A stretch of DNA of 63,376 nt from Acidobacteriota bacterium (GTDB lineage: Bacteria; Acidobacteriota; Thermoanaerobaculia; UBA5066): NCBI GenBank assembly GCA_039934255.1, contig JBDTML010000163.1:1-63376 (forward strand). The letters run 5' to 3'. The position numbers and the translations under genes were made by a program. This document shows positions 16,637-58,398 of this stretch, one piece after another (within the stretch, counting starts at the first letter, position 1; every line of letters begins with the position of its first letter). The notes beneath the pieces are model-generated. The model made no database searches and was not told the origin of the DNA. It saw only the letters and a program-made list of their open reading frames with translations.

Positions 16637-16706
16637 GTGTTTTCCTGCTTAGAAGGGTGTGTGAGCCCATCGCTCATTCATCCTTCTAGGCAATCGAGAA
16701 TTCCCT
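16637..16706. repeat. Inverted pair of the AT-rich 'CTTAGAAGG' repeat family (arms F1 and F2)
   Basis: tgCTTAGAAGG (16646-16656) and CCTTCTAGGca (16682-16692) can pair over 11 bp including one G-U, with a 25-nt loop. The left arm resembles the copies at 29426-29448 and 42231-42262. The pair lies between convergent genes, and the right arm encodes the last residues of the RluA-like protein. Confidence 0.55.
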
Positions 16707-17367
16707 CGTAATCCGCCGGCAGAGGCGCCGTGACGTCGATTCCCAATTCCGCGACCTCGATCCGCCAGGCGTGGAGCAGCGGATGTGTGAGCCGCGAGAG
16801 CGCCTCGCGCAGGGCGCGGTCCCTCACGCCATGCCAGCGGCTGGCGCCCCCGTAGAAGTCGTCGCCCACGATCGGGTGGCCATTCGCGGAAAGATGGACG
16901 CGGATCTGGTGCGTGCGTCCGGTTTCGGGGTGGAGCTCGAGATCGGCGAGCGACGGGAATCTCCCGAGCGTTGCGTAGAGCGTGACGGACGGCTTCCCGT
17001 CGGCCCAGACGCGCATCTTGCGCCCGTCCTTCGGGTCGCGCGCGAGCGCGAGGTCGATCGTCCCCTTCGCGGGCACCGGGTGGCCCCAGACGAGCGCACG
17101 GTACGTCTTCCGGGCGCGGCGCTCCTGAAGCGAGAGGCTGAGCGCGCGATGCGCGGCGGGGGTTTTCGCGAAGAGGACGACGCCCGACGTTCCCGCGTCG
17201 AGGCGGTGCACGAGAAGCGGGAGAGGGTCCGGCAGAGCGACCCCGCAGGCCGCCAGCAGACGCCGGACCGCATCTTCCGCGGACTTGCCCTCCTTCGAAG
17301 ACGTCGCCATCGAGACGCCAGGAGGCTTGTCGAGAGCCAGGACGTCTTCGTTCGCGAAGAGGATCAC
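16678..17367 (-). CDS. RluA family pseudouridine synthase
   Basis: The sequence reads ..ILFANEDVLALDKPPGVSM...LLVHRLDAGTSGVVLFAKT...TYRALVWG...GRTHQIRVHL.. (HRLD catalytic motif). GTG at 17367 overlaps the upstream stop as GTGA. The longer tracked ORF (to 17787) is Arg-rich and overlaps the upstream gene. Confidence 0.88.
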   Translation of the reverse strand: MILFANEDVLALDKPPGVSMATSSKEGKSAEDAVRRLLAACGVALPDPLPLLVHRLDAGTSGVVLFAKTPAAHRALSLSLQERRARKTYRALVWGHPVPAKGTIDLALARDPKDGRKMRVWADGKPSVTLYATLGRFPSLADLELHPETGRTHQIRVHLSANGHPIVGDDFYGGASRWHGVRDRALREALSRLTHPLLHAWRIEVAELGIDVTAPLPADYEGILDCLEG

Positions 17368-17852
17368 CGCGCCGGAAGCTCGTCCACGTTCGTCATGACG
17401 ACGCGGGATTCCGCGTAGATGACGCGCGACGCGTAGCGGCGCTTCTTCACGACTTTCGTCTCGACGAGAACCATCCGTCCCGACGCCAGGTCTTCGGGAA
17501 CGGACGCGTCCCTCGCGAGGGGGTATTTCACGAGCTGTCCCGCGGGTGACGTCACCGTGATCGATCTTCCCGGCACGTATCCCGTCACGGTCGACGCGGC
17601 CGAGCGCCCGAGCATGACGGGCTTGCCCGGGGCGAGGCCCGACTTCAGCCGGACGCGGCCGGCCGCCGGGAACGCGACGAGCGGCGGCGCGGAAACGGTC
17701 GGTCCGCCCTCGGGCGTCGGGGCGGAAGCGGGTGCCGTCGTTTCCGGGACGGGTGTCGGGGCGGCCTCCTGCGCGGAGAGCCGCCAACCGGTTAGCGCCA
17801 TCAGTGAACCGAAAGCGACGCGGAAAATGGACGGGAACGCGCCGGCTTTCAA
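17364..17852 (-). CDS. Secreted hypothetical protein (signal peptide, Pro/Thr-rich linker, small beta-rich domain)
   Basis: The N-terminus is MKAGAFPSIFRVAFGSLMALTGWRLSAQEA, followed by a PT-rich linker. The C-terminal domain is related to the upstream paralogue (GRSITVTSP..LA.D..VPEDLASGRMVLVE). Confidence 0.6.
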   Translation of the reverse strand: MKAGAFPSIFRVAFGSLMALTGWRLSAQEAAPTPVPETTAPASAPTPEGGPTVSAPPLVAFPAAGRVRLKSGLAPGKPVMLGRSAASTVTGYVPGRSITVTSPAGQLVKYPLARDASVPEDLASGRMVLVETKVVKKRRYASRVIYAESRVVMTNVDELPAR

Positions 17853-18466: not shown

Positions 18467-18508
18467 ATGCGAATTGTAGTCTTTGGGGTCACGGGTTCCG
18501 CAGCGTCC

Positions 18509-19984: not shown

Positions 19985-20040
19985 CGGCGGCAGAGAGTAG
20001 CAGGCGCAACCGCACTAGAATCCCGATCCGGAGGCGCGCG

Positions 20041-21521: not shown

Positions 21522-21660
21522 CATGCCGGGGCGGAAGCCGGGGCTTGAGACGGGGACTCAACGGAGTGATCCGTTTGCACCATTGAGGAAGACCGGGTCC
21601 GCCCGCACTCTGACGCGCACCCGAAGGGTCCATTCCGGGAACCTTTCCTGATCATTTTCC

Positions 21661-24344: not shown

Positions 24345-24366
24345 CGGCGCTTCGCCCCCGGGCTTC

Positions 24367-24395: not shown

Positions 24396-24399
24396 GCCC

Positions 24400-27995: not shown

Positions 27996-28769
27996 TTAAC
28001 CCAAAAAGGGTAACACCTGCGCGCCTTTCGACTGCAGGAGCCAGCGCGTCGCGGCGTGGCTCGGGTTCCCCAGAACCATCGCCGGCTCGCCCTCCTCGAC
28101 GACGACACCGTCCGCGAGAATCACGACGCGCGTGGCGAAATCGCGCACGAGATCGTCGTCGTGCGTCGCGACGACGAGCGTCCGGCCGTCCTCCTTCACG
28201 AGTCGGGCGAGGGCGCGCCCCAGCTCGTTGCGGCGCGCGGGATCGAGCGAGGCCGTCGGCTCGTCCATCAGGAGGAGCGGGGGCTCCATCGCGAGAGCCC
28301 GCGCAATGGCGACGCGCTGCGCCTCGCCGCCCGACAGCTCGCGGGGCAGCGCTTTCTCGAGGTGCCCGACGCCGAGCGTGCCGAAGAGCGCGCGGGCACG
28401 CGCCTCCGCGGTCTCTCGCCGCACCCTCGCGACGTGGACGGGCGCCAGCGTCACGTTATCGAGGACCGGGAGGTGCTCGAAGAGCCCGTGGTGCTGAAAG
28501 ACCATTCCGACGCGCGCGCGGAGGGCGCGGAGCGTCCCGCCCGCGGGCGGCGGGCCGGGCTCGAGCGCGACTCCGTCCAACGTGATCCTTCCGGCGTCGA
28601 AGCCCTCGAGGCCGGCGACGGCCCGGAGGACCGTCGTCTTCCCTCCTCCCGAGAGCCCCATGAGGGCCACGAACTCGCCGCGCGCGACGGAAAGCGTCAC
28701 GCCGTTCAGGACACCCGTGGATCCGCGCGAAAGCCTCAGGTCGTCGATCGCGAGGAAGGGAGCGCTCAC
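27996..28769 (-). CDS. Polar amino-acid ABC transporter ATP-binding protein
   Basis: Motifs present: Walker A GLSGGGKTT, Q-loop VFQHHGLF, signature LSGGEAQRVAIARAL, and Walker B LLLMDEPTASLD. GTG at 28769 overlaps the upstream stop as GTGA. Confidence 0.9.
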   Translation of the reverse strand: MSAPFLAIDDLRLSRGSTGVLNGVTLSVARGEFVALMGLSGGGKTTVLRAVAGLEGFDAGRITLDGVALEPGPPPAGGTLRALRARVGMVFQHHGLFEHLPVLDNVTLAPVHVARVRRETAEARARALFGTLGVGHLEKALPRELSGGEAQRVAIARALAMEPPLLLMDEPTASLDPARRNELGRALARLVKEDGRTLVVATHDDDLVRDFATRVVILADGVVVEEGEPAMVLGNPSHAATRWLLQSKGAQVLPFLG

Positions 28770-30367
28770 GCGGAGGCCGCCTTCCAGCGCCCCTCGAGCC
28801 GCCGCGCGAGACGCGAAAGCGGCAGGGACATGGCGAGGTAGAGCGCCGCGCAAAGAGCGCCCGGAATCGCCCAGCTCGCGATGTTCGTCGCGAAAATGGC
28901 CGTCTGCTTCGTGAGCTCGACGACCGTCACGACGGATACGAGCGAAGAATCCTTGAGGAGGGCGACGAAGTCGTTCGTCATCGGCGCGAGCGCGAGCCGG
29001 AAGGCCTGGGGGCCGCGTACGAGGCGGAGGACCTGCCCCTCGGTGAGCCCGAGCGTGCGCGCGGCCTCGAGCTGTCCCTTCGGCACTGCCTCGAGCGCGC
29101 CCCGGTAGATCTCGCTTTCGTACGCGGCGTAGTTGAGGCCGAGCCCGAGGAGCGCCGCGACGAATGCGGGCAGGCGCACGACGGACGAGAGCCCGTAGTA
29201 GAGGACGAAGAGCTGGAGGAGTACCGGCGTCCCGCGCGTGATCTCGACGTACGCCGTCAGCAAGAAGCGCACGGGCGTGTTCCCGTACACCCGGCCGCTC
29301 GCGATGGCCACGCCGAGCACGACGGCGAGCGCCATCGAAAGGCACGAAAGCACGATGGTGACAAGGGATGCTCTCAGGAGAGAGGGGAGATAAGAGATCA
29401 CGAGAGAAAGAGAGGAGGAAGAGAAGATTTTCTTAGAAGGTGAAGAGGAAGAGGGAGAAGAGGCGGGCTGCGCCAGGGCGCCCGCTCGCAGCGCTTCGGC
29501 GCCGCCCGGCGCCTCTTTGCCATTCGAGGAAATCCTCGTCCCCGTCCCCTCCGAAATCCGAAGCAAAGAATTTTCTATTTCCTTCTCCTGGAATTTCTCC
29601 TGTTCTCCATCCCACACGTTCCACTTCTCGAAGATCTTTCGCAGCGTCCCGTCCCGCATCTTTTCCCTCAGGATCGAGTCGATCCGGTCCCTGAGCCCCG
29701 CGTTCTCCTTCGCGAGAACGCCGACGTAGCGCCCCGTCGCGATCGTCGCGGGCTGGATGGCGAGGCCCGCGACGCGCCGCACCGAGCGCGCCGCCAGGAC
29801 GTGATCGAGGAGCACCGCGTCCAGCCTGCCCTTCGCGAGGTCCTCGTAGGGATGCACGTCGTCGTCGTAGGAGACGGGGACGATGCCGTCCGTCTTCTCC
29901 GAGGCGGCGAGAAGGTCCCACGCGATCGTGCCCGCGAGCGTCCCGACCCTTCGGCCGCGGAGGTCGGCAACCGAGCGGAAGCGGCCGGTGTCGGCGGCCC
30001 GGACCGCGAGCACTTCCCGGAACTCGAAGTACGGGATCGTCAAAGCGAGCGCCTCCCGGCGCTGGGGCGTGTCTTCGACGCCCGACATGCCGATCTCGAA
30101 ATCGCCCCGCGCGACGGACTGGTCGATCGTCTGGTACGCCACCTGCACGAACTGCGATCTCCGGCCGAGGCCTTCCGCGAGCGAGGACGCGATCTCGACG
30201 TCGAATCCGCGCAACTTCCCCGGATCCGCCGGGTCGGCCTCGACGAACGGCGCGCCCCCCTCCGCGTCGCCGCCCCACCGCAGGACGAGCGAATCGGGCC
30301 CCGCCGCGCGCGCCGCGCCCGCGGCGCCCGCGGACAGCAGGGCCGCGACGAGGACGGCCCGGATCAC
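28766..30367 (-). CDS. Fused periplasmic substrate-binding domain and permease of a polar amino-acid ABC transporter
   Basis: The signal peptide is VIRAVLVAALLSAGAAGAARA. The SBP_bac_3-like part reads GFDVEIASSLAEGLGR...VAYQTIDQSVARGDFEIGMSGV...YF. A low-GC Ser-rich linker follows. The permease carries the EAA-type loop (..YESEIYRGALEAVPKGQLEAARTLGL..). GTG at 30367 overlaps the psd stop as GTGA. Confidence 0.82.
   Translation of the reverse strand: MIRAVLVAALLSAGAAGAARAAGPDSLVLRWGGDAEGGAPFVEADPADPGKLRGFDVEIASSLAEGLGRRSQFVQVAYQTIDQSVARGDFEIGMSGVEDTPQRREALALTIPYFEFREVLAVRAADTGRFRSVADLRGRRVGTLAGTIAWDLLAASEKTDGIVPVSYDDDVHPYEDLAKGRLDAVLLDHVLAARSVRRVAGLAIQPATIATGRYVGVLAKENAGLRDRIDSILREKMRDGTLRKIFEKWNVWDGEQEKFQEKEIENSLLRISEGTGTRISSNGKEAPGGAEALRAGALAQPASSPSSSSPSKKIFSSSSLSLVISYLPSLLRASLVTIVLSCLSMALAVVLGVAIASGRVYGNTPVRFLLTAYVEITRGTPVLLQLFVLYYGLSSVVRLPAFVAALLGLGLNYAAYESEIYRGALEAVPKGQLEAARTLGLTEGQVLRLVRGPQAFRLALAPMTNDFVALLKDSSLVSVVTVVELTKQTAIFATNIASWAIPGALCAALYLAMSLPLSRLARRLEGRWKAASA
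29411..29610. repeat. AT-rich repeat pair (arms A1 29411-29463 and A2 29556-29610) inside the SBP-permease linker
   Basis: A1 contains gattttcttagaaggtgaagagg (29426-29448), which is 21/23 identical to 56982-57004. A2 (aagaattttctatttccttctcctggaatttctcctgttctcc) carries the same motif family in the opposite orientation. GC content here is far below the surrounding sequence, and rare codons (TCT, AAA, ATT, AGA) are used. Confidence 0.6.
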
Positions 30368-32585: not shown

Positions 32586-35500
32586 TCAGAAGGCTCCGGC
32601 GATCGCGTCCCAGAAGTCGCAACGGGACGTTCGCACCCCGGCCCCCGGCGCAATCACGTTGTCGAACCCGAGAAATGTGTCGAGAGCCGCGTCGTAGCGG
32701 GGCCAGGGCGATGCGCCGGGAGCGTTCGGGTCTCCCTTCGCGGCGAACCGGGACCAGTACCCGTTCATCGCGTCCGAAAGCGCCCGCTCTCGCTCGGAGG
32801 GCGTGAAGCCCGGGAACTTGTCGAGGGTCCCGAAGACGAACGGGAGCTCCAGCGAGTGGTACGCGCCGTACGAAGCGGCAGACAACGAATCCAGAGCCTT
32901 GGTGAAGAAGTAACGAAACACGGGCTCGGTCTGGCTGGGCGCCGCCGCGCGCGCGATTCGCCGCGCCGGACACACGTAGATCTCGTCGGTCGTCGCCGCG
33001 ATCCAGGCCTTCTGCGGCGTCGCGAAGGCGCTCGAGGGGTACTCCGCGAGAACGCGCGAGCCGAGGAGGCCTCCGTAGAAAGAAAAGATCGCCGACCGAA
33101 AGGCCGCGTCCGTGGGGAGAGAAGGGGCGTCGAGAGAGGTCTCGTCGGCATTCGCGCCGACGAGAAGCGGGACATGGTGATGTCTGCCGGCCGAGAGCGC
33201 GTCCAGCGGCGACTCGGGGAGAACGAAGCCATCCACGTTGGGGCCGTACGCGACGGCATCGGGGCGTCCCGCCGACACGAGCGTCTCCGCGCTCACGGTT
33301 CTGAGACACGCGGCCACGTCGGACGCTCCGCGGCAACCCGCCGCCTCGACGATCGTCTCGCCGGCCGCCTCCGCCTCGCGGAGCGTCGGCTGGCTGCAAT
33401 GTCCGCTTTCGATGAGCGCGCGCGCGAAGAGCCCCTTCGCGAGCGGAGAGGCGAGAAGGGAGCAGACGTCCGCCCCTCCCGCCGACTCGCCGCCGACGAG
33501 CACCCCGTCCGGGTCGCCGCCGAATGCCGCGATGTTGCGCCGCACCCACTGTAGAGCGGCGATCTGGTCGAGAAGACCGCCGTTCCCCGAAACGCCCTCC
33601 GCGCTCTCGGAGTCGAGCGCGGGGTGTGCGAGAAAGCCAAGAGTGGAGAGCCGGTAGTTGATCGTCACGACGACGACTCCGCCCTTTTCCACGAAGGCCT
33701 CGCCGTCGTAAACCGGAAAACTCCCCGCGCCCTGCACGTTCCCGCCGCCGTGAATCCAGAACACGACCGGCGCGCGCAGGAGAGAAGGCGTGGCCGGCGC
33801 CCACACGTTGAGCACGAGGCAGTCCTCCGACCCGACGACCTGGCCCGAGCCCGTCGCCTGCGCGCAGATACTTCCGAACCCGGACGTATCGCGGACGGTC
33901 GTCCATGGGTCGGGAGGCACCGGAGGACGAAATCGGAGCGCCCCGAGCGGAGGCGCCGCGTAGGGAATTCCGCGGTAGACCAGCGCCTGGCCCATCCGAA
34001 AGCCCCGCACCGTTCCGCCGGACGTCGGCACGACGGCGGGAACGGAAGCGACGTCGAGGGTCAGCGCGGCGGTTCCCGTGCCGCAGGAGTTCGTCGAAGA
34101 CAGCCGATAGGTCGTCAGGGCCGCGGGAGTCAGCGTCAGCGTGTTGCCGGGCGTCGACGTGATCCCGCCCGGGTCGGTGCGCACGGCTGGCCCCCCCGCG
34201 AAAACGGAGACCGTCACCGGAGTTCCAGGCGCCGCCCGAAGGGGCACGACCGAGAGAATGTCGATCGAGGGCACCGCGCACGCGGAAGGCTTCGGCATCG
34301 CAGGCGCCACCACGGCGTCCCCCGTGACGTTGTCGACGACGCTCGCGTACGCATCGGCGGATCCCGTCGTCAACGTGACGTCGACGCGAGCTCCGAACGG
34401 CGCGCCTGCTGCCGCCCCGAACCATCCCTCGAGCCCCTGCTGCCGCCATTCGGTCGGCCCGAGGAGGAATGCCTTTCTCGCGGTCTCGGCGCCGGCGAGG
34501 TCCCGAAGCGTGAGAAAGCCGCTCGCACCCCCGGGTCCGCCCAGAACGGCGATGTTCGTGCGGAAGCCAGGCGATGCGCCGGAGTTGACGAGCCCGGGCA
34601 GTGTGGCCTCGCGCCCGGCGGCGGTCAGGCCAGCCGTCCAGGTAATGGCGCGAAGGCCCGCGCTGAACCCCCCGGGACGCGCACCGGCTGGATCCGCGTT
34701 GCGTGTGCGCCCAGCCGCGAGAAACGGACCCGACGCCCGGAGGAGGATCGCGCCGGCCACGCCCTCGCCCAGACCGAAGCCGCCCGGCCCGAGGACGTCG
34801 GCGATCTCGACGAGCGCGCGCGGCGCGAGCGTGCGTGTGAAGGACGCCGCGGAGGGGAAGCCAACCGGCGCCCCCGTCACGACGAGCGGGGCCAGGCCGG
34901 GATTGAAGATCCGAAGATCGGTCGTCCAGTGGGTTCCGTTCAGACCCCCGGCACGTGCCGCGCCGTCCAGGAGAACATCGCCATTCTCGAAAGGCACGCG
35001 CTCGGCGACGACCGCGATGCCGTCCCCCGTGACATTGTCGACGACGGCCGTGAATCCGATCGCCCGCCCGCGCGTGACCTCTATCGTGACCCGGCCCGTC
35101 ACCAGGCTCGGGAGGGCCGCGAGATCGCCGGTTGACGCCTGCCACGTGACCGGCGCCGCCGACGCGACCCGCGCCGAGCCGCGTGCGAAGCCCGATTCGT
35201 CCCACACCGTCACGATCGCCTCGCTATCGGGATCGAGGAGCGCGAGATTCACGTTCGTGCGGTAACCGCGGACGTAATCGGCGGAGCTCGAGAGCCAGAT
35301 CGCGTGGCCCGTCTCTCCCGGCAAGAGCGTTCCCTCGTCGCCCACTGCCGTGAGAGAGACGCCGTACGTAGCCGCGGGATCGGCCACGTTCACCGTCGAG
35401 CCGCGCACGATGAGGGGAACGTCACTCGAAATCGTGAGCGTGCCGAACGTGCCTTCGAGGCCGAAGAGATCCGAAAGAGCATTCGAGAAGGCCAGGGACG

Positions 35501-35762
35501 CGCCCGCCGGCAGGACCTTCGTGACAGCAGCCGGAGCGGAAAAACCTCCCGCAGGGACGAGCCCGATCGCCACCGTCGCCTCGAGCGGCCCCGGATTCAC
35601 GACGAACACGTTCGAATGGAAGACCGTCCCGTTCAGCCCGCGTGTATTCGCGACGCCCGGGAGAAAGAGCGTGGCGGCCGGCGCCTGGGAAGCGAGACCG
35701 AGGAGGCATGCCGCGCTCACGAGGCGGCTGACGATGGTGGGGGTGTCTCCCGGACGGATCAA
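32586..35762 (-). CDS. Secreted multidomain protein: two tandem unknown modules of about 230 aa, an Ig-like spacer, and a C-terminal type-B carboxylesterase
   Basis: The C-terminal part reads YRGIPYAAPPLGALRF...LVLNVWAP...VFWIHGGGN...GNGGLLDQIAALQWV..NIAAFGGDPDGVLVGGESAGG (GESAG). In the N-terminal part, both modules start ..GLNGT(V/H).. ..NPG.. and end ..VVDNVTGD... The TTG start at 35762 is uncertain. Confidence 0.8.
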   Translation of the reverse strand: MIRPGDTPTIVSRLVSAACLLGLASQAPAATLFLPGVANTRGLNGTVFHSNVFVVNPGPLEATVAIGLVPAGGFSAPAAVTKVLPAGASLAFSNALSDLFGLEGTFGTLTISSDVPLIVRGSTVNVADPAATYGVSLTAVGDEGTLLPGETGHAIWLSSSADYVRGYRTNVNLALLDPDSEAIVTVWDESGFARGSARVASAAPVTWQASTGDLAALPSLVTGRVTIEVTRGRAIGFTAVVDNVTGDGIAVVAERVPFENGDVLLDGAARAGGLNGTHWTTDLRIFNPGLAPLVVTGAPVGFPSAASFTRTLAPRALVEIADVLGPGGFGLGEGVAGAILLRASGPFLAAGRTRNADPAGARPGGFSAGLRAITWTAGLTAAGREATLPGLVNSGASPGFRTNIAVLGGPGGASGFLTLRDLAGAETARKAFLLGPTEWRQQGLEGWFGAAAGAPFGARVDVTLTTGSADAYASVVDNVTGDAVVAPAMPKPSACAVPSIDILSVVPLRAAPGTPVTVSVFAGGPAVRTDPGGITSTPGNTLTLTPAALTTYRLSSTNSCGTGTAALTLDVASVPAVVPTSGGTVRGFRMGQALVYRGIPYAAPPLGALRFRPPVPPDPWTTVRDTSGFGSICAQATGSGQVVGSEDCLVLNVWAPATPSLLRAPVVFWIHGGGNVQGAGSFPVYDGEAFVEKGGVVVVTINYRLSTLGFLAHPALDSESAEGVSGNGGLLDQIAALQWVRRNIAAFGGDPDGVLVGGESAGGADVCSLLASPLAKGLFARALIESGHCSQPTLREAEAAGETIVEAAGCRGASDVAACLRTVSAETLVSAGRPDAVAYGPNVDGFVLPESPLDALSAGRHHHVPLLVGANADETSLDAPSLPTDAAFRSAIFSFYGGLLGSRVLAEYPSSAFATPQKAWIAATTDEIYVCPARRIARAAAPSQTEPVFRYFFTKALDSLSAASYGAYHSLELPFVFGTLDKFPGFTPSERERALSDAMNGYWSRFAAKGDPNAPGASPWPRYDAALDTFLGFDNVIAPGAGVRTSRCDFWDAIAGAF

Positions 35763-40461: not shown

Positions 40462-41504
40462 GCAGGCACGACGAGCCTGGTTCCCCGGATCGACTCGATG
40501 AAGCGCGCGCCGAACGCCTCCGAGGGCGTGTGGACGCCGGGAGCGACCTCGCCGGCGAGGACCCTTTTCGCGATCGCGATCGACGTCTCGGCCGTTAGCG
40601 CATAACCCTCCACCGTTTCGAGCGTGCCCGTCACGGAGCGTCCGTCCTTCGTGACGCGCCCCCAGAGGAACGAGCGCTCCCGCGCGCGCTCCTCCGCCGT
40701 GGGACCCTTCACGCTCCTGTCGATGCGCCTCATGAGAAAGCGCTGTACGAACGGCAGACCGAGGACCGGTGCGAGCCGGCGCATGCGCCGTGCATTGGCG
40801 ACGGCGGACGGGGGGACCGCCATGTAAACCTCGATGTTCGGTATCCCCGTCGAGCGCCATGCGGTCGCGAGGTCACCCCACGGAATCGTCATCGCGAGGC
40901 GCGGCTCGGGAAGCGGAGCCTCCATCGTCTTCCATGCCGACGGGACACCGACGAGCTTTCCGTCGACGCGCACGAGCCCGCCCTTGTGGGCGCCTTCGAC
41001 CATCGTCTTCATCGTTCCCGCGCTCGGCTTGAAGCCCCGGAAGGCGAGCGTGAGCGTCTCCGCCCCCGGCAGGGCTTCCGAGAGCGCTTTCGCGAGGCAG
41101 TCCGAAGGCACGACATCGAACCCCGTGCCCGGAAGGACGGGGATTCCCGCGTTCTTCGCGTCAGAGTCGCGCGCGAACGCGGCCTCGAATACCGCGACCT
41201 CGCCCGTGATGTCGAGATAGGCGGTCTTCGCAACGAGGCAGCCTTCGAGCACGGGGGCGCTCGTCTTCGAGAAAGGTCCTGCCGCGAGAAGCACCGCGGA
41301 GAAGGGCTCGAGGAGTCGCCCCACGGTCCCGGAATCCTCGAGTCCGAAGCAGAGGCTCTTGAGGCCGTGCGCCTTCGCGATCGACTCGACAGCCTCCGCG
41401 CGGCGGCCCGCGAGGGTGGGCCGGAGGCCCTCGCGAAGCGCCACCTCGAGGATGAGCTTCCCGGTATACCCGTTGGCGCCGTAGAGGAGCAGGCCCGACT
41501 TCAT
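40458..41504 (-). CDS. Saccharopine dehydrogenase-like NAD(P)-binding protein
   Basis: The sequence reads MKSGLLLYGANGYTGKLILEVALREGLRPTLAGRR (Rossmann GxxGxxG) ...YLDITGE... RBS GGAAGGAG. ATGA overlap with the upstream gene. Confidence 0.8.
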   Translation of the reverse strand: MKSGLLLYGANGYTGKLILEVALREGLRPTLAGRRAEAVESIAKAHGLKSLCFGLEDSGTVGRLLEPFSAVLLAAGPFSKTSAPVLEGCLVAKTAYLDITGEVAVFEAAFARDSDAKNAGIPVLPGTGFDVVPSDCLAKALSEALPGAETLTLAFRGFKPSAGTMKTMVEGAHKGGLVRVDGKLVGVPSAWKTMEAPLPEPRLAMTIPWGDLATAWRSTGIPNIEVYMAVPPSAVANARRMRRLAPVLGLPFVQRFLMRRIDRSVKGPTAEERARERSFLWGRVTKDGRSVTGTLETVEGYALTAETSIAIAKRVLAGEVAPGVHTPSEAFGARFIESIRGTRLVVPA

Positions 41505-42904
41505 GAAGGAACTCCTTCCGCCGCGCCGGGCGCATCTCCCAGACGGACGCCGCAGACGTTCGAGAGATCGCGGCACGCGTCGACTTCGTCCTCCGCGCCG
41601 CGTGCCGCCTCGTCGGACAGGACGTAACGAAACGCGCCGTCGCCGGGGAAGACGACGCCGTTCTCGAGGACGCGGCGCGGCCCGCCGACGCCGAAGAGGC
41701 CGGAGTCCATCACGATCCACATCCAGTCGGCCTCGCGGGCGAGGCCGGCATGGGCGAAAACGTCGCCTAGGCGGAAGGCGGGCGAGGCTTCGCAAGAAGA
41801 AGAAGGAGAAATTTGCTTAGAAAGGAAGACGGAGAGAGCTTCGAAGCCTCTTGGATCGAATGAGCGCATCGCGCCCTTCCCGTCTTCGAGCGTCAGGAGC
41901 GGGGCGCCCTCCGGAATAAGCGCGTCCGCCAGCACTTTCTCCCATTCAAAGAAATCTCCCTGTCCCTCTCCCCCCCCCGTGTCCGGGTCCTTCAAGATGA
42001 CGTCCACCCGGCTGTCGCGCCGCCAGGACGTCGGCTCGGTCGAGAGCCGGCCCCCCGCGATCTCGTGGACCCGCCAGCCCGCTGTCGTGTGAAAGAGGCC
42101 CTTCGCGCGCGCGACGCGGCCGCGTGTGATATTTCCGGACCGCAGCGCCTGGAGGGCGGTGAGAAGGCGGTCTGCGTCGAAGACTCTCTCCGGCGGGTAC
42201 GCAACGCCCTTCCCGACATGTCCTTCGGAGGAATTCGGATTTCCATGAAGGTGGTGTGACGCCCGCGCCTCGAGAAGGGTCGCGGCGGCAGCGGTCGCGG
42301 GGCGCTCGAGATCCCAGACCTCGTCGGGGAGGACGCCGTGCTTCGCCCGCACGATCAGCAGCTTCGGCGGCGCCAATGTGCGGAGGAACTCTTCACTTCT
42401 AAGAATCTCTTCTTCTCCGGCGACATCGCACCGATTTACGACGATCACGTCGGCGACGTCGATCTGGTCCCGGAACAGCCCGCTCCGCGCGTACTCGCCC
42501 GCCACGTCCTGCTGCGGATCCAGCAGCGTGATGACGGGGCGCACGTCGAAGCGCTGCGCCCAGCGCGGGCCGCGCAGGAGGTCGACGAGCTCGGACGGCC
42601 GCGCGAGCCCCGTGGGCTCGAGGACGAAGCGCGTCGGGGCCACGAGGTCCGAGACCTCTTCGAGCGACGCCTCGAGATCGGCCATCGCCGTACAGCACAC
42701 GCAGCCGCCCGGCACCTCCTTGAGAACGCAGCTCGCGCAGTCCGAGAGAAGCGCTCCGTCGACGCCGAGCGTGCCGAATTCGTTCACGATGACCGCGATC
42801 CGTTCGCGATCGGCCCGGCGCGCGAGAAGGTCCTTCACGGCGGTCGTCTTCCCGGCGCCCAGAAAACCCGAGAGGACGTGAAAGGGGACTCTCACGGACC
42901 TCAT
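41501..42904 (-). CDS. CobW/G3E-family GTPase (metallochaperone-like) with an extra C-terminal region of about 170 aa of unknown function
   Basis: Motifs present: P-loop LSGFLGAGKTT, the CxCC metal motif GGCVCCT, NRCD, and the His-rich linker HHLHGNPNSSEGH, followed by a CobW_C-like segment. I cannot assign the remainder (..FEWEKVLADA...DWMWIVMDSGLFGV..). The start at ATG 42904 is tentative. Confidence 0.8.
   Translation of the reverse strand: MRSVRVPFHVLSGFLGAGKTTAVKDLLARRADRERIAVIVNEFGTLGVDGALLSDCASCVLKEVPGGCVCCTAMADLEASLEEVSDLVAPTRFVLEPTGLARPSELVDLLRGPRWAQRFDVRPVITLLDPQQDVAGEYARSGLFRDQIDVADVIVVNRCDVAGEEEILRSEEFLRTLAPPKLLIVRAKHGVLPDEVWDLERPATAAAATLLEARASHHLHGNPNSSEGHVGKGVAYPPERVFDADRLLTALQALRSGNITRGRVARAKGLFHTTAGWRVHEIAGGRLSTEPTSWRRDSRVDVILKDPDTGGGEGQGDFFEWEKVLADALIPEGAPLLTLEDGKGAMRSFDPRGFEALSVFLSKQISPSSSCEASPAFRLGDVFAHAGLAREADWMWIVMDSGLFGVGGPRRVLENGVVFPGDGAFRYVLSDEAARGAEDEVDACRDLSNVCGVRLGDAPGAAEGVPS
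41794..41975. repeat. AT-rich repeat pair (arms 41794-41840 and 41932-41975) inside the CobW-like gene, at the CobW_C / extra-domain junction
   Basis: The left arm is aagaagaagaaggagaaatttgcttagaaaggaagacggagagag. Its reverse complement is 15/16 identical to 57123-57138 over cctttct[a/c]agcaaat. The right arm is ctttctcccattcaaagaaatctccctgtccctctcc, in the opposite orientation. A 9-nt inverted repeat (gaggcttcg / cgaagcctc) flanks the left arm. Confidence 0.55.
42228..42420. repeat. AT-rich repeat pair (arms 42228-42262 and 42383-42420) inside the CobW-like gene
   Basis: The left arm ggatttccatgaaggtggtgtgacgcc resembles 16640-16667 (ttttcctgcttagaagggtgtgtgagcc). The right arm ctcttcacttctaagaatctcttcttctcc is the reverse orientation of the 29426-29448 core. 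Confidence 0.5.
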
Positions 42905-44914: not shown

Positions 44915-44937
44915 GCTTCGAGGGGCCGGTCGTTCGC

Positions 44938-44978
44938 TTGTTCTTCTACCTTCTAGGAAAATCTTCCTCTTAGGAGGT
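44938..44978. repeat. Single copy of the AT-rich repeat in the speA / beta-lactamase spacer
   Basis: The reverse complement of 44944-44967 is ggaagattttcctagaaggtagaa, which is 18/19 identical to 29424-29442 over gaagattttc[c/t]tagaaggt. Its 3' end runs into the AGGAGG RBS of the beta-lactamase gene. Confidence 0.6.
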
Positions 44979-44983
44979 TCCCG

Positions 44984-45883
44984 TTGAACGTCGTTCTCCC
45001 CATCGCTCTCGCCGCCCTCGCGGCCGTTCCGTCGGCGGCCGCCCCGGACCCCGCGGCCGCCTCCATCGTCCGCGCCGGTGCGGACGCCGAAAAGGCCTCC
45101 GGCGCGGTGATCGGTTTTTCCGTTCTCCACATCGAGTCCGGCCGGCACGTTGCTCACCGCGGCGGCGACACATTTCAGATGGCGAGCGTCTTCAAGGTGC
45201 CCGTCGCAATCGCGATCCTCGACGCCGTCGAGAAAGGAAAGCTGCGGCTCGATCAGGAGGCCGAGATTCGGGAGTCGGACCGGATGGAGATCGGTCCGAT
45301 CTACGACGAGTGGAAACCCGGGATGCGCGTGACGGTCGAGCGAATGGTCGACGTCATGCTCGTCGACAGCGACAACACCTCCGCGGACGTCCTCATCGGC
45401 CTCCTCGGCGGGCCGCACGCCGTCGAGAAGGCGCTGACGGCGAAAGGCGTCTCCGGCATCCGGATCTCGCTCGACGAAAAGGGCCTCGGCGCCGCGATGA
45501 AGAAGGATCTCGCCGCGCTCGAGAGGGGCTCCGAGAACGGCGCGAGCCCCGACGCGATGGCGGGGCTGCTCGTGCGCCTCTTCAAGGGCGAGCTCCTTTC
45601 GCGTCCGTCCACGGACCGCATCCTCGACGCGATGCGCCGGTGCGCGACGGGCGGCCGCCGGCTCCGCGCGGGTCTTCCGAAAGGCACGGAGGTCTTCGAC
45701 AAGACAGGCACACTGCGCTCGTGCGCGAACGACTCCGGAATCGTGACTCTCAAGGACGGTTCGCACATCGTCCTCGCCGTCTTCGCCCGCGGCGGAAAGG
45801 ACGCCGCCGCACGCGAGAGCGCGATTGCCTCGGTCGCGAAGGCCGCGTGGGAGACGTTCGCGCCGGCTACGTCGGCTCGGTGA
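44984..45883 (+). CDS. Class A (serine) beta-lactamase family protein
   Basis: The signal peptide is present, along with the SxxK motif MASVFK, the SDN motif VDSDNTSAD, and the KTG motif FDKTGT. TTG start 6 nt after AGGAGG. Confidence 0.85.
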   Translation: MNVVLPIALAALAAVPSAAAPDPAAASIVRAGADAEKASGAVIGFSVLHIESGRHVAHRGGDTFQMASVFKVPVAIAILDAVEKGKLRLDQEAEIRESDRMEIGPIYDEWKPGMRVTVERMVDVMLVDSDNTSADVLIGLLGGPHAVEKALTAKGVSGIRISLDEKGLGAAMKKDLAALERGSENGASPDAMAGLLVRLFKGELLSRPSTDRILDAMRRCATGGRRLRAGLPKGTEVFDKTGTLRSCANDSGIVTLKDGSHIVLAVFARGGKDAAARESAIASVAKAAWETFAPATSAR

Positions 45884-51934: not shown

Positions 51935-51946
51935 GGACCCCCGAAC

Positions 51947-52519: not shown

Positions 52520-52572
52520 CCAAACTCCTGAATGGGATGCCCGGCCGCGCCGGCACGAGGTCTTTCCTTAAC

Positions 52573-52587
52573 GCGAGGAGCGTGCCA
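52573..52587 (-). promoter_or_regulatory. Possible sigma54 promoter upstream of the 51947..52519 gene
   Basis: The minus strand reads TGGCACGCTCCTCGC. GG and GC are spaced exactly as in TGGCACG-N4-TTGC (the -12 element is TCGC). It lies 54 nt upstream of the ATG. Confidence 0.35.
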
Positions 52588-52619
52588 GACCCGGCCTTCG
52601 AAGTGTAACAGCCGCTTCA

Positions 52620-54050: not shown

Positions 54051-56170
54051 GTTTTTCCAAACGCGGAGGGGCGCAGCGAAACGAGCAGGCTGACGGCGAG
54101 CGCCAGCGCGGTGACCACGGAAATCATGAACCCGATCTTCACCCACCGCGTGTCCGGCCGCAAACGCAGGTGATGACGTCCTTCCGGAACCGCCAGGCCC
54201 GCGAACCCGAACGCGACGCGCGAGACGCGGGCAGGGCTGCCGTCGAGCGTGGCCTCTTCCGCGGCATCCCACAACCGGTACAGCATGAGAAAGCCCGGGC
54301 CCGGCCCCGCAACCTCGACGTCGAGAAAGAGCCCGGAAGGCCGATCGTCGACGGCCAGGATGCGGCCAGCCGCCGGAGCGGGAGAAACTCCCGGGACCGC
54401 TTCGTCGACGTACGCGGTGTCGACGCCGAAGCCGTCCTCGAGAAGTCGCCCGAAGACGGCGCGAGCGTCGGGGGAGGCCGCGAGCTTCGCCGCGAACCGG
54501 TAAGGCGGAACCGGGTCGCGAATCGGCTCGAGACGCGGCCGGTAGCGCCCGTCCTCTTCTCGCTCGCTCCGGACGATCGCCGAGACGCCCGTGCCACGCA
54601 CGATGCGGATGGCGAGCGCCGGCGTTTCCCGGACGGCGCGATTGAGGAGGCGCGTCCACTCGAACGTTTCCGCCGGAAGCGACAGGTCGTAGTCAACCTC
54701 GAATTGATAGGCGACGCCGAAGAGCGACCCGTAGGCCGGGAGCAGCGATTCCCGACCGACGCGGCCCGAGGCCCTGAGGTCGCGCGAGTCGTACACCGGA
54801 ACGGGGGCGTAGAGGTCCCGGAAGAAGAGGCGCGGCGGTGGGGCGGCGCCTGGGGGCGCGGGAAATCCGGCCAGAAGCGTGGGAGCGCGCGTGATGACCG
54901 ACGCATCCTCGAGAGGCATGAGGCGCCGCGCGATTCCCTCCCGATCGATGAAGATCGCGAAAGCGAGGAGTGGCAAGGCGATGCGAAGAGCCCGGGGCGA
55001 CAGGGCGCCCGCGAGGCTCGACAGCCCCAGCGCGGCGAGCCAGGCGAGCCCGAATCCGAGGAGAACCATGTACTTCTCCGGGTACCGGATCCAGCCGAGA
55101 GGCGGCAGCAGCCGCGCGGCGAGCCCGAAGACCGGCGTGGCGCCGCCGAGGGCGAGGAGGAAGCCTGTGGCCGCGAGGAGCACAGCCGCGACCCGTCCCG
55201 GCCCTTTCCGGACGAGTCCGACGACGACGAGAATCCACGCGACTCGCCCCGGCGTCACGGAGGGAAGGTAGGGATAGTCCGGAATTCCGGGAGCCGACGC
55301 GACGACCGCCCAGTCCGCGACCAGCCCGTCCGTGAAGAGGTCTTTGAGGCGCGACAGCACGAATGGGTTCAACGCGGCGGCAGCCGGGCCCATGCCTCCT
55401 CCCGGCGACCGGATACTGCGTGCGGCTGTGGCCGCCCCCGGCAGGATCGCGATCGCGCCGAGCCCGGCGGCGAGAAACGCGCTCGCCACGAGGAGAGCCA
55501 GCGGACGCGCCTCCTGTCGCCACGTCCCGCCTTCACCGCGTGCCGCGAAGAGAACCGCGACGGCGACACACAACGCGAAAATCACGAATTCGGGCGCCGT
55601 CGCGAGAAGAATAAGGGCCGCCGCGATTCCCACCTTCGCCACCTTCGCCACCTCCGCTACCTCGCGCGTACGCGACGCTTTCACGAGGTCGTAGACGAAT
55701 GCGGCAAACCACGGAAGGATCGAGAGCGCGGACATCGTGGGCGGAAACGTGGCGACGGACACCGCCGCCGCGCCGAGCGCGAAGGCGAGTCCCGCGAGGG
55801 CCGCCGGCCCGCGCAAAAGGCCGAGGCGCCTTCCGAAAGCGGCGAATCCGGCGACGGCCACTCCGAGATGCAGAACGATCCACGCCTTCATCGCGGCCCC
55901 GAGGGGCAGCACGAGGAAGAGGATGTTCGCGGGGTCGAACGGCGCCGCCGAGGGAGCGCCGAGAAGCGGCGCCCCTCCCCATCGAAAGCGATCCACCCAG
56001 GGCAGTTCTCCACGAAGGACCGCTTCGACGAGATGAGCCTTCAGCGGAAAGAAATAAAACAGGAGGTCCCGCCCCACCGGAACGCCGGATCCGAAAAGCC
56101 CGCGAAACGGCAGGAGCACGAGAAGGATCGCCCCGACGAGAGGAAGCGATTCGCGCAGACGTGCCTTCAC
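54047..56170 (-). CDS. YfhO-like polytopic membrane protein (putative GT-C glycosyltransferase), copy 2
   Basis: The sequence reads VPVGRDLLFYFFPLKAHLVEAVLRGELPWVDRFRWGGAPLLGAPSAAPFDPANILFLVLP. It has many TMs and a C-terminal module ..VSRVAFGFAGLAVPEGRHHLRLRP.. GTG at 56170 overlaps the upstream stop as GTGA. Confidence 0.72.
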   Translation of the reverse strand: MKARLRESLPLVGAILLVLLPFRGLFGSGVPVGRDLLFYFFPLKAHLVEAVLRGELPWVDRFRWGGAPLLGAPSAAPFDPANILFLVLPLGAAMKAWIVLHLGVAVAGFAAFGRRLGLLRGPAALAGLAFALGAAAVSVATFPPTMSALSILPWFAAFVYDLVKASRTREVAEVAKVAKVGIAAALILLATAPEFVIFALCVAVAVLFAARGEGGTWRQEARPLALLVASAFLAAGLGAIAILPGAATAARSIRSPGGGMGPAAAALNPFVLSRLKDLFTDGLVADWAVVASAPGIPDYPYLPSVTPGRVAWILVVVGLVRKGPGRVAAVLLAATGFLLALGGATPVFGLAARLLPPLGWIRYPEKYMVLLGFGLAWLAALGLSSLAGALSPRALRIALPLLAFAIFIDREGIARRLMPLEDASVITRAPTLLAGFPAPPGAAPPPRLFFRDLYAPVPVYDSRDLRASGRVGRESLLPAYGSLFGVAYQFEVDYDLSLPAETFEWTRLLNRAVRETPALAIRIVRGTGVSAIVRSEREEDGRYRPRLEPIRDPVPPYRFAAKLAASPDARAVFGRLLEDGFGVDTAYVDEAVPGVSPAPAAGRILAVDDRPSGLFLDVEVAGPGPGFLMLYRLWDAAEEATLDGSPARVSRVAFGFAGLAVPEGRHHLRLRPDTRWVKIGFMISVVTALALAVSLLVSLRPSAFGKT

Positions 56171-58398
56171 GGGCGCGCCCCTCGCCGGGCGACAAGAGCG
56201 ACGGCCAGAAGCGACGCGACGGAGAGCGCCCCCCCGGCGAAGAAGGCGGGGTTCTCGTATGCGAGCGCGATCTCGTGGTCTCCGCCCGGAACGTCCACGG
56301 CCATCATGTATCCGTCCGAGGGGCGGATCGCGAGATCCGCCCCGTCCACCCGAGCATGCCAGTTCGGGTCGAACGTCCGCGCGACGAAAAGCACCGCCAC
56401 AGGAAGGCCCACCCGTACCCGGAGGCGGGCCCGGCCCGGCCGGCTCTCCTCCACCGAAACCGTCCCGCCGCCCGCCGGGAGAAAGCAGAACTCCGCGCGC
56501 GCGCCTTCGACGCGCAGGATCCGGTCCTCTCCGAAGCGGCCGATCTCGACGACTCCGGGCGGATCGGGCGGCACCGCCGCCGTCCTCACGAGAGTCACGC
56601 CGAGAGTGCGCAGGCGCGCGACCTTTTCCGCTCCCCATTGGAGTCCCGCGAGTGCGCGGGCGAAGCGCGCCGAGGGAGCTGCCGTCATGCGGTCCACGTC
56701 GTTCTCCCCGGCGTATCGGATCCCGAAGGCGACACCCGCCGCGGGGAGCAGCGGGTCGAATCCGCCGGCCTCGCGCGTCCGGCGCGCGACCGTCGACGCG
56801 GCGCCGGCGCCGTCGTCGTAGAAGCGCCCGGCCCCGATCCGCGCGCGCACGAGCGCGACCTCGGGTGTCTCGCGGCGGTAAAGATCCGGCGGCCCCGCGG
56901 GGCACGTCCCCGCCACGCGCCGCGCCGCGTCGGCCAGAAACAACACGGCAATGATGCTGGCGAGAAGCATCGTGTCACGGCGCTTTTCTTTGAAGGTGAA
57001 GAGGGAGAACGCGACCGCGCACAGGAGAAGGGTCGCGGTGGCCATGAGAAGCGGCGCTCGAAGGACTCCCGCGACGGCGGCACCAGAGGTATCGCCCACA
57101 CCAAGCCCCATCGCCCATATTCCCTTTCTCAGCAAATCTTCCGCGCCGACCGCCAAAGCGAGGAGCGCGCCGCAAACGAGAGCGAGCCCGGTCGCTCCCC
57201 TCCGAAGCAAATCGACGGCTTTTCTTCTCGTCTCCCCCACCTCATCGGAAAACACAGCATCGACGCCGACCGCCGCCGCCCCCGCGAGCGCGAACGTCAC
57301 GAGGAGCCACCATTTCTCCGGATAGCGAAGGACTGAAACGGCCGCCGCGAGGAACGAGGCCCCGGGCAGGAACCGCCCGAACGAGAGCACGGCTCCGCCG
57401 AGCGCGAGAAGAAGCGCGGCTCGTCCCCGCCTGTCGCGCCACGCGGCCGCGGCGAAAAGGAGCGGAACAAGCCCGAGCGCGAGATCCTCGAAGTAGGGGC
57501 TGCCCGCGTCGAACGTGCCCCTGCCCCAATCGAGGGACGTGTCGCCTTGGGGATCGCCCGTGAGCCGCGGTTCGAGAAGCGTGAGGACGCGCGACGGCCT
57601 CACGGACCGGAAGAGGGCTCCGTGTTCGGGCCGCATCTCGATACCCCGCGCGGAGCGGGAAAGCTCGAGGACCGCCGGACAGATCTGGACCGCCGCAAGA
57701 CCCGCGCCGAGACCCAGCGCGAGAAGCGCGCCGGCAATGGCGCGCCCGCGCGCCTGCCCCGCGCCGAACGCCGCAACCGCGAAGAATGCCGCCGCGCCCA
57801 TCAGCGTCACGGCCGGTTCGCCGCCGAGCGCCGCGAGGCCGACGGCGAGCGCCGCGACGGCGCGGGCGCGACCGCGGGCAGCCGCGTCTCCCGAGGCGAG
57901 GCGGGGCGCCTCGGCGAGCGCGAAGGCAAGCGGCAGGACGGCCGCGCACGTCGTCGCGTAGACCGGAAGCGACTGTGCGACGCCCGAAAAGAGGAGAACG
58001 AGCGTCCCCGCGGCACAGGCCTGAGGCGAGAGGCCGATGCGCCGCAGGGAAAAAAAGAAGACCGCGAGGACGAGAAAGATGGCGACGAAAGCGAGAGCCG
58101 TCGGCGAGAGAACGAGGAGGAGCGGCGAGAGCGGCCAGAACGCGGCGGCATTCGGGTCCGCGGCGAAGGGTCTTCCCGCGGACATCCACTCGTTCCAGAC
58201 GGGCATCTCGCCCGCCCCGAAGAGCCGCCCGAGGGCGAGCCTCCAGGGGACGAAGAAGAAGCCCGCGTCGCGCCGATACAGCGTGCCGCCGACCAGGAAA
58301 GGAGCAAACCGGATCGCGGCGGCAGTGAGAACGGCGGCGAGCGCCCATGCAGTGAAACGGGCGCGGAGGCGAGGGGACTCCTCCGGTGCGCGCGTCAC
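56167..58398 (-). CDS. YfhO-like polytopic membrane protein (putative GT-C glycosyltransferase), copy 3
   Basis: The sequence reads GGTLYRRDAGFFFVPWRLALGRLFGAGEMPVWNEWMSAGRPFAADPNAAAFWPLSPLLLVL. It has many TMs and a C-terminal module ..FDPNWHARVDGADLAIRPSDGYMMAVDVPGGDHEIALAYENP. GTG at 58398 lies 5 nt after the upstream stop. Confidence 0.72.
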   Translation of the reverse strand: MTRAPEESPRLRARFTAWALAAVLTAAAIRFAPFLVGGTLYRRDAGFFFVPWRLALGRLFGAGEMPVWNEWMSAGRPFAADPNAAAFWPLSPLLLVLSPTALAFVAIFLVLAVFFFSLRRIGLSPQACAAGTLVLLFSGVAQSLPVYATTCAAVLPLAFALAEAPRLASGDAAARGRARAVAALAVGLAALGGEPAVTLMGAAAFFAVAAFGAGQARGRAIAGALLALGLGAGLAAVQICPAVLELSRSARGIEMRPEHGALFRSVRPSRVLTLLEPRLTGDPQGDTSLDWGRGTFDAGSPYFEDLALGLVPLLFAAAAWRDRRGRAALLLALGGAVLSFGRFLPGASFLAAAVSVLRYPEKWWLLVTFALAGAAAVGVDAVFSDEVGETRRKAVDLLRRGATGLALVCGALLALAVGAEDLLRKGIWAMGLGVGDTSGAAVAGVLRAPLLMATATLLLCAVAFSLFTFKEKRRDTMLLASIIAVLFLADAARRVAGTCPAGPPDLYRRETPEVALVRARIGAGRFYDDGAGAASTVARRTREAGGFDPLLPAAGVAFGIRYAGENDVDRMTAAPSARFARALAGLQWGAEKVARLRTLGVTLVRTAAVPPDPPGVVEIGRFGEDRILRVEGARAEFCFLPAGGGTVSVEESRPGRARLRVRVGLPVAVLFVARTFDPNWHARVDGADLAIRPSDGYMMAVDVPGGDHEIALAYENPAFFAGGALSVASLLAVALVARRGARP
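56981..57145. repeat. AT-rich repeat pair (arms 56981-57010 and 57115-57145) inside YfhO-like copy 3
   Basis: 56982-57004 (gcttttctttgaaggtgaagagg) is 21/23 identical to 29426-29448. 57123-57138 (cctttctcagcaaatc) matches the reverse complement of 41811-41826. A weaker third piece lies at about 57200-57240 (ccgaagcaaatcgacggcttttcttctcgtctccc). Confidence 0.6.

Follow-up and report, generated by a model that had tools for sequence, protein, structure and literature searches.

Why should a stretch of DNA with a GC content of 69.05% carry the same AT-rich word again and again, inside genes as well as between them? The question is raised by contig JBDTML010000163.1 of an Acidobacteriota bacterium (assembly GCA_039934255.1), of which we analysed positions 1 to 63,376 (63,376 nucleotides in total, hereafter the window) and for which a sequence-only reading had proposed a family of short AT-rich repeats, together with three possible explanations: an in-frame mobile insertion, a selected binding site or uptake-type signal, and an RNA-level structure. 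We find that the repeats are copies of a lineage-wide genomic word of the Thermoanaerobaculia, GC-rich soil bacteria. This class-wide word is asymmetric, occurs mostly as convergent pairs around arbitrary DNA, is made by substitution and is conserved at synonymous sites; this descriptive part is far more secure than the mechanism that we propose below. In the following, "arm" denotes one copy of the motif and "element" a pair of arms plus the interior between them, and single positions are motif centres.

The motif spans about 22–28 bp and consists of an outer purine run, (GAR)n-GAT, the core TTTCTTAGAAGG and the inner part TGAAGAGGG. A general repeat finder returned only GC-rich chance matches from the window, so that a matrix was needed to find the family. 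The independent matrix used here has 28 columns and was derived from 125 arms of unrelated metagenome contigs, the window and its syntenic loci being excluded; because no other arms entered the training, circularity is avoided. With this matrix the window contains 8 sites of at least 16 bits, where 100 shuffles that kept the composition of 40-nt blocks had 0.10 on average and never more than 2; at 8 bits or more there are 17 sites compared with 2.55. The repeat family is thereby established as real. The core originally put forward, GATTTTCTTAGAAGGTGAAGAGG, is present exactly at 29426–29448 and with 21 of 23 positions at 56982–57004, and was matched in none of 100 dinucleotide shuffles. Two further similarities had been registered out of place by 1–2 nt: 29424–29442 agrees with the reverse complement of 44949–44967 at only 6 of 19 positions, while 29424–29440 and the reverse complement of the shifted segment 44951–44967 agree at 16 of 17 by hand; likewise, 57123–57138 and the reverse complement of 41811–41826 share 6 of 16 positions, and 57123–57137 and the reverse complement of the shifted segment 41812–41826 share 14 of 15 by hand. 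Where at least eleven arms had been counted, eight are strong and about five only weak, 16650 and 42245 among the latter. The copies in the window are as follows:

16638–16665, + strand: weak arm (centre 16650; 10.6 bits with the independent matrix) in purine orientation, containing CTTAGAAGG
16673–16700, − strand: weak partner arm (centre 16688; 10.2 bits), 38 nt from 16650, + strand CCTTCTAGG
29422–29449, + strand: the window's strongest arm (centre 29434; 40.8 bits), reads SSSPSKKIFS in the gene frame
29512–29539, − strand: strong partner arm of 29434 (centre 29527; 22.2 bits; spacing 93), reads GTRISSNGKE
33064–33091, + strand: weak solo arm (centre 33076; 14.9–16.1 bits) inside a 1058-aa open reading frame (ORF; 32586–35762, −)
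41806–41833, + strand: P4, strong arm (centre 41818; 29.3 bits) in the CobW/COG0523 gene (41501–42904, −), reads SVFLSKQISP
41934–41961, − strand: P3, strong arm (centre 41949; 30.1 bits) in the CobW gene, reads GDFFEWEK directly after the CobW_C domain
42213–42260: P2b (centre 42228, −; 10.7 bits) and P2a (centre 42245, +; 12.1 bits), overlapping weak arms in the CobW gene
42386–42413, − strand: P1, strong arm (centre 42401; 24.1 bits) inside the Pfam cobW nucleotide-binding domain, reads EEEILRSEEF
44940–44967, − strand: strong arm (centre 44955; 31.6 bits) in the speA-to-bla spacer, sense (+) strand ACCTTCTAGGAAAATC
44959–44986, + strand: weak arm-like sequence CTCTTAGGAGGT (centre 44971; 14.5 bits with the first matrix, absent at 8 bits or more with the independent matrix)
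56978–57005, + strand: strong arm (centre 56990; 27.9 bits) in a YfhO-like membrane protein gene (56167–58398, −), reads SLFTFKEKRR
57115–57142, − strand: strong partner arm in the YfhO-like gene (centre 57130; 30.4 bits; spacing 140), reads AEDLLRKGIW

The first of these pairs lies between two convergent genes, with the + arm in the spacer that separates a TonB-dependent receptor gene (13618–16611, +) from a pseudouridine synthase gene (16678–17367, −) and the − arm overlapping the 3′ end of the latter. The strongest arm is located in the linker of an ORF that fuses SBP_bac_3 and BPD_transp_1 domains according to Pfam (28766–30367, −). This arm is indeed paired, yet not with the site at 29556 that had been named as its partner (about 9–10 bits) but with the one at 29527 (22 bits, 93 nt away). 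Presumed orthologues, by which we mean ORFs of similar size whose arms match in relative position (0.52 to 0.60), occur in L002, L006, L007, L012, L019 and L022; together with the window, the distances between their arms are 69, 90, 90, 90, 93 and 117 nt, all multiples of 3. The fusion itself is a single ORF in which a Ser-rich linker of about 60 aa connects the amino-acid-binding domain and the permease; in the presumed orthologues the length of this linker differs by multiples of 3 nt. In the CobW gene, P3 and P4 are 131 nt apart, the commonest value among orthologues (130–134 overall), and the reverse-orientation core noticed earlier at 42386–42417 is arm P1, the partner of P2a. P2b and P2a lie in the His-rich CobW linker SHHLHGNPNSSEGH, and in orthologues the P2 site reaches 24–37 bits, e.g., GATTTCTTAGAAGGGTATGTG in L009, L010, L017 and L019. 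No partner was found for the arm at 33064–33091. The window elements at 16.65, 29.5, 41.9 and 57.05 kb are about 12–15 kb apart and look regularly spaced; we dropped this idea because the points are too few and another locus, L119, has 11 arms in 13.7 kb.

How far does the word extend beyond the window? A search with the CobW-family protein yielded 28 syntenic loci, all of them from metagenome-assembled genomes of Thermoanaerobaculia/Acidobacteriota, at 58–88% protein identity. In the window and these loci combined (535 kb), over-representation of 9-mers is greatest for ATTTCTTAG, TTTCTTAGA and TTCTTAGAA; of TTCTTAGAA there are 36 copies where 0.4 are expected. The exact 18-mer TTCTTAGAAGGTGAAGAG was found in at least 120 stretches of metagenome contigs, at least about 95 of which belong to contigs of 63–74% GC with unrelated flanks. 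The matches listed for this 18-mer constitute our metagenome element set, in which the seeds are biased toward the consensus and the partners are not. The remaining listed stretches are AT-rich genomes, many with an EF-G-like coding match: at 26–43% GC (L032, L037, L046, L053, L068, L085 and others) the 18-mer encodes ..FLEGEE.. of an EF-G-like protein, which is a chance match at the protein level and unrelated to the motif family. Arms that were not chosen by exact match have the consensus ..GAAGAATTTCTTAGAAGGtGAA..GGG and a density of 0.24 per kb, i.e., about one per 4 kb. Their outer side shows a mild purine bias over about 25 nt, conservation fading gradually without a sharp end. Tracts resembling (GAA)n/(TTC)n occur on this outer side, for instance at 41794–41812 of the window and in its orthologues, where the poly-Ser (TCT)n tract flanking P4 varies in length; tract lengths differ between species, and within ORFs the tracts are read as poly-Ser or poly-Glu. 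The variation suggests slippage seeded by the arm. A search of the literature produced no description of the motif, and plasmid, phage and viral collections gave chance matches only.

The arrangement of the arms is as distinctive as their sequence. Among nearest-neighbour pairs, 63 are convergent within 300 nt and none is divergent within 360 nt, and close direct pairs are rare. The layout of a left purine arm and a right pyrimidine arm, first described for the window, is thereby confirmed and proves to be a general rule across the sampled elements. The GGG ends face inward, and the arms are spaced 26–279 nt apart (median 129) in a broad distribution that shows periodicity neither at 9–12.5 bp, as expected for helical phasing, nor modulo 3, as expected for codons. 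A downstream inverted partner accompanies 46% of the seeds at a threshold of 14 bits and 65% at 6 bits, compared with 0–8% at three control positions (6–8% at the lower threshold). The interiors, by contrast with this common frame, are specific to their locus: the four of the window could not be aligned with each other, and among 245 pairs of similar interiors (86 elements) a BLAST comparison of interior and flank left only 2 without similar flanks, so that nearly all of these pairs represent the same orthologous site. Non-coding DNA makes up only about 9% of the total. A single coding frame runs through 18 of 54 independent elements, and the others are situated at gene boundaries or in spacers; arms in spacers comprise 29 between codirectional, 10 between convergent and 9 between divergent genes, and solo arms inside ORFs, divided into 5 purine-sense and 4 pyrimidine-sense copies, prefer neither strand.

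How can a gene accommodate such a word? Plots of GC content at third codon positions (GC3) by frame reveal that the coding frame is the same before and after the AT-rich patches, and within the arms GC3 drops to 0.30–0.70, compared with 0.87 overall in the window. The clusters of rare codons to which attention had been drawn are borne out by the codon usage of the window (TTA 0.2, AGT 0.9, AGA 1.3, TCT 2.8 and AAA 3.4 per 1000). The SBP-permease copy is read as CCT TCT AAG AAA, the YfhO copy, with the register off by one base, as ACC TTC AAA GAA, and the CobW copy uses the opposite strand, ATT CTT AGA AGT. Consequently, the constraint acts on nucleotides: as the sequence-only reading had held, the similarity is not one of proteins, since frame and strand differ from copy to copy and some copies are intergenic. 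Alignment with orthologues, which it had proposed as a check, supports the same conclusion. Conservation of the CobW ORF (467 aa) extends over its full length in more than 20 species. In a codon alignment of 20 orthologues GC3 is 0.85–0.97 along the gene but, in every species, 0.38–0.63 at four shared places, where the rare AT-ending codons are kept. The conserved codons are ATT CTT CGA/AGA .. GAA at P1 (GC3 5–20%), CTT CAT GGA AAT at the P2 site, GAT TTC TTA GAA (GAT TTC TTx GAA TGG GAA) at P3 and, in about 20 species, CTT TCT AAG AAA ATC TTC TCT at P4 (GC3 10–25%); at the conserved AT-ending codon columns of the four patches GC3 is 0–25%. An even denser case is L119, whose 11 arms in 13.7 kb are the highest density seen: its alanyl-tRNA synthetase gene, alaS (3351–6092, −), carries five arms, one of which overlies the universally conserved GYVLRK motif (GGA TAT GTT CTT AGA AAG GTG). 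Despite these arms, residues 12–575 match positions 2–550 of the Pfam catalytic domain profile, nearly end to end. Interiors, too, often encode conserved parts of the host protein, such as the end of the cobW GTPase domain or the alaS catalytic domain. The arms thus arise in place by point substitutions, which are synonymous or conservative within genes, and not by insertion, and they are maintained against the strong GC pressure of the genome.

An informative relative lacks the arms altogether. L018 has none in 21 kb at 68.9% GC; its CobW protein is 79–85% identical outside the arms and is nested among arm-bearing sequences in a neighbour-joining tree, and its gene has GC-rich codons at all four arm sites, with no indels at P1 and P3. 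Such a pattern is what one would expect if maintenance of the arms depended on a factor lost in that lineage.

Taken together, these findings indicate that the word is probably read by a trans-acting factor and fits no described repeat family; of the three explanations originally offered, a selected binding site or uptake-type signal agrees best with the data. With regard to mechanism, we tentatively favor that each arm is read as duplex DNA by a trans-acting protein that needs two arms of fixed polarity. Such a sequence-specific protein would recognize each arm separately, and its action would depend on two arms in fixed mutual polarity, comparable to the pair of ends that a transposase or recombinase binds, or to the halves of a bidirectional polar signal. 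The AT-richness of the word makes it nearly impossible for the site to arise by chance at 70% GC. The process served may be chromosome structuring or a barrier function, recombination, or DNA uptake, among which the sequence itself cannot choose. Several points weigh against this proposal. No candidate for the reader protein was identified, and 35–40% of the exact-consensus arms are without a recognizable partner. The missing 10.5-bp periodicity of the spacing argues against direct protein–protein looping at such short range. Inverted repeats can always fold, and the minimum-energy folds of 63 independent elements do pair the arms; the hairpin in front of bla, described below, behaves like an RNA element, a local exception. 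Moreover, our gene calls stem from a home-made GC3/codon scorer, and that the L018 lineage lost the arm-maintaining system, as seems to be the case, is deduced from one 21-kb locus and a single-gene tree.

The RNA-level structure is the first alternative that has to be weighed. Here the arms would pair in RNA transcribed from either strand, or in single-stranded DNA, and a structure-specific factor (RNase III, an HUH enzyme or a stabilizing or terminating activity) would read the stem, as in REP, REPIN and ERIC sequences. A variable spacing without helical phasing would suit a stem that closes a loop, and if the stem had to keep one polarity, the restriction to convergent pairs would be accounted for. 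The arms themselves do not behave accordingly: core identity is 0.751 between partner and 0.747 between non-partner arms (flanks, 0.386 and 0.405), which leaves no covariation, and at a core identity of only about 75% the stems carry many uncompensated mismatches. Wobble-compatible transitions are equally frequent on the sense (170) and antisense strand (173), the folds of four window pairs are no better than those of shuffles (z-scores of −1.6, −0.9, +1.1 and +1.2), and the covariance models of Rfam 15 have no match at gathering score in the window (63 kb) or in 20 element-rich loci (125 kb). In REPINs, on the contrary, compensatory changes are common (PMC3116915). The evidence therefore speaks against pairing between arms as the selected trait, and we regard a hairpin element as an unlikely explanation of the family.

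The exception is the spacer between speA and bla. Its arm at 44940–44967 is conserved in 11 other species and forms a 12-bp hairpin with CTCTTAGGAGGT, which holds the Shine–Dalgarno sequence of bla, AGGAGG (44972–44977), and ends at the TTG start codon (44984). In the 12 species 92.3% of the cells of the stem are paired, compared with 49–71% in slid controls; changes at internal pairs mostly keep G–U pairing on the sense strand, with no compensatory double change. The conservation of 92% of the pairs and the G–U-preserving changes count in favor of a hairpin. It looks as if the 44915–44986 region sequesters the Shine–Dalgarno sequence, that is, as if a hairpin for translational control had been built from the same word. 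The spacer measures 69–153 nt where the arm is present and 6 nt in L010 and L001, which are without it and in which bla is probably translationally coupled to speA. Mimicry of the anti-Shine–Dalgarno sequence at the 16S 3′ end was rejected as a general explanation: the pyrimidine arm CACCTTCTAAG resembles CACCTCCTTTCTAAG, but its GGTGA is the least conserved part, and the ordinary ribosome-binding sites of these loci have a GC-rich upstream context, which also counts against it; none of the loci includes an rRNA gene. We kept this reading for the bla hairpin alone.

Other regulatory roles were discarded as well. Inspection by eye revealed no plausible −35/−10 spacing of a promoter in either orientation. 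For an intrinsic terminator, the stem has an AU-rich base and no U tract, and no bias exists among convergent, divergent and codirectional spacers. The likeness to a CodY box (AATTTTCWGAAAATT) and to the STAT-type site TTCnnnGAA does not extend to spacing, phylum and layout.

Uptake of DNA offers a different reason for a word to spread. If an uptake machinery prefers fragments that bear the motif, subsequent recombination accumulates it; such molecular drive has been proposed for the uptake signal sequence (USS) of Pasteurellaceae and the DNA uptake sequence (DUS) of Neisseriaceae. As with USS and DUS, a lineage-specific long word, missing from the relative L018, is present in many copies and both orientations, is enriched between genes and is overprinted on ORFs in several frames where the peptides are tolerant or compatible. 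Genes resembling those of a type IV pilus or type II secretion system (T2SS) are also at hand, the window encoding a PilD-like protein and pseudopilins and L119 a PilB/T-like ATPase, but such genes are non-specific evidence. The difference lies in the arrangement. A single USS or DUS suffices, and paired sites are tight terminator hairpins; the convergent pairing at 26–279 nt around arbitrary DNA (63 versus 0) has no known counterpart there, and about 60% of the arms have a convergent partner where single sites without a distant partner would be typical. Furthermore, USS and DUS occur about once per kb, so that the present AT-rich word, set in a GC-rich genome at about one arm per 4 kb, is roughly four-fold sparser. 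In other respects the comparison is closer: the extended USS motif covers about 30 bp around a core of 9–12 bp, and 34.5–65% of USS are within ORFs, where they prefer poorly conserved residues (PMC2817400). On balance, an uptake-signal-like word appears improbable.

Inverted sites could, in principle, also serve a global invertase for recombination in which the interiors are flipped, even inside genes, as happens in phase-variable and intragenic invertons. Inversion obligatorily requires inverted orientation, whereas direct pairs, which would lead to deletion, are rare at close range, and elements of 70–280 bp overlap the size range of invertons. However, 711 aligned pairs of elements, orthologous or from the same site, did not include any flipped interior, in assemblies that display only the major orientation; hits that appeared inverted came either from loci that lie in opposite orientation as a whole or from self-alignment of arms. 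A simple recombinase would also accept divergent pairs, of which none was seen, the interiors keep a normal coding bias in one orientation only, and spacings down to 26–41 nt are too short to invert. The probability of invertons is accordingly very low.

The explanation named first by the sequence-only reading, a mobile in-frame insertion akin to transposable elements of the miniature inverted-repeat type (MITEs) or Rickettsia palindromic elements (RPEs), fares no better. RPEs and prokaryotic MITEs have an inverted-repeat layout with in-frame copies in protein genes that are conserved between species (review PMC10969869), and all of this applies to the present family. The terminal-inverted-repeat-like arrangement, an approximately seven-fold enrichment outside ORFs and the presence or absence of the speA–bla arm (6 nt versus 69–153 nt, the only length difference found) would also be compatible with insertion. 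RPEs and MITEs, however, are inserted units that share an interior and lengthen the host protein, whereas here the interiors are unique to each site (2 of 245 similar pairs without similar flanks), the arms overlie conserved protein segments without added length and the arm-free L018 orthologue shows no indels at P1 and P3. Nor did the suggested check for terminal repeats, target-site duplications and a cognate transposase speak for mobility: no target duplication is visible, the outer ends are diffuse and no recognized transposase is enclosed between distant arms, the one enclosed gene scanned with Pfam being an aminotransferase. A full-length insertion sequence bounded by arms, or any transposase-sized element of this kind, was not found, and matches in plasmid, phage or viral collections do not exceed chance. 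This explanation is thus highly improbable. Finally, chance resemblance of AT-rich, low-complexity or Lys/Ser/Glu-coding patches, to which the weakness of some of the proposed arms (16650, 29556, 42245) and the EF-G-like 18-mers of AT-rich genomes might point, is practically negligible in view of the 8 sites versus 0.10 expected from an independent matrix with local composition preserved, the at least about 95 exact 18-mers in GC-rich contigs, the orientation bias of 63 to 0 and the synonymous-site conservation in 20 species.

Where, then, does the word belong? With REPINs it shares a unit of two inverted copies of a short conserved sequence, long persistence at orthologous sites and the occurrence of singlets (PMC3116915). 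REPINs are extragenic, have related spacers with a spacing of 71 or 110 bp per family, commonly show compensatory changes and have a RAYT gene nearby (PMC3116915); in the present family, one third of the pairs fall within ORFs, including the ORFs for CobW, the YfhO-like protein and the SBP-permease in the window, the spacing ranges from 26 to 279 nt, interiors are unrelated and covariation is missing. No RAYT turned up among the about 37 proteins scanned with Pfam. The ends of transposons and the sites of paired-end recombination are likewise asymmetric, about 25 bp long and convergent, with a fixed inside and outside, any interior length and no covariation between ends. Unlike them, the arms give no sign of movement, of cleavage termini, of target duplications or of a cognate transposase or recombinase, and arise by substitution. 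HIP1 (GCGATCGC, cyanobacteria), Chi and KOPS are over-represented words of 5–8 bp that are selected at the DNA level and act singly. Like these, the present word is over-represented and is held at orthologous positions within genes by selection on DNA; unlike these, it is 22–28 bp long, asymmetric and arranged in facing pairs. The family therefore lacks the defining features of MITEs and RPEs and those of REPINs and has in common with uptake sequences only the descriptive one, over-representation in both orientations including several frames of ORFs. We file it with the genome-wide signal words, as a variant not described before.

A bolder extension of the proposed mechanism, which we consider possible but doubtful, is a genome-wide "punctuation": hundreds of facing pairs of polar 25-bp sites would be served by a dedicated DNA-binding or DNA-translocating reader, unlike USS, Chi, KOPS, parS, REP and MITEs. 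A domesticated transposase or recombinase might fill this role, as might a barrier or loader that acts bidirectionally for SMC-type or repair machines. If such punctuation exists, its selective value must be high enough for rare codons to be imposed even where essential genes (alaS, for example) encode universally conserved motifs. The word would join the few known DNA words of genome-wide occurrence (USS/DUS, Chi, KOPS, HIP1, REP) as one that consists of facing pairs and is kept in coding sequence against strong GC pressure, and it illustrates the extent to which the codon use of essential genes can be shaped by a non-coding signal. A comparison of arm-bearing and arm-free genomes should nominate the reader protein. 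In practical terms, the motif marks Thermoanaerobaculia DNA in metagenomes and explains local drops of GC3 that can lead gene callers to split fused ORFs.

The gene content of the window is ordinary overall and comprises, besides the TonB-dependent receptor, the pseudouridine synthase, the fused SBP_bac_3 and permease ABC transporter and the COG0523 GTPase, genes for an arginine decarboxylase, a class A beta-lactamase, YfhO-like membrane proteins and pilin-like proteins. At its C-terminus the CobW COG0523 GTPase carries a fused, conserved module of about 80 aa (41501–41790, −; AFRLGDV..DWMWIVMDSGLFGVGGPR..DACRDLxNVCGV), which has no Pfam match and was found in more than 20 Thermoanaerobaculia species. 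In L021, L023 and L028 the CobW reading frame is broken, owing to either assembly error or pseudogenization. At the other end of the window, a prepilin peptidase (A24) gene (2192–3370, −) adjoins two tandem paralogous pseudopilin genes with N_methyl and T2SSG domains (5726–6229, −, and 6403–6888, −), which share 121 nt at 82% identity; the group looks like a type IV pilus/T2SS-like cluster.

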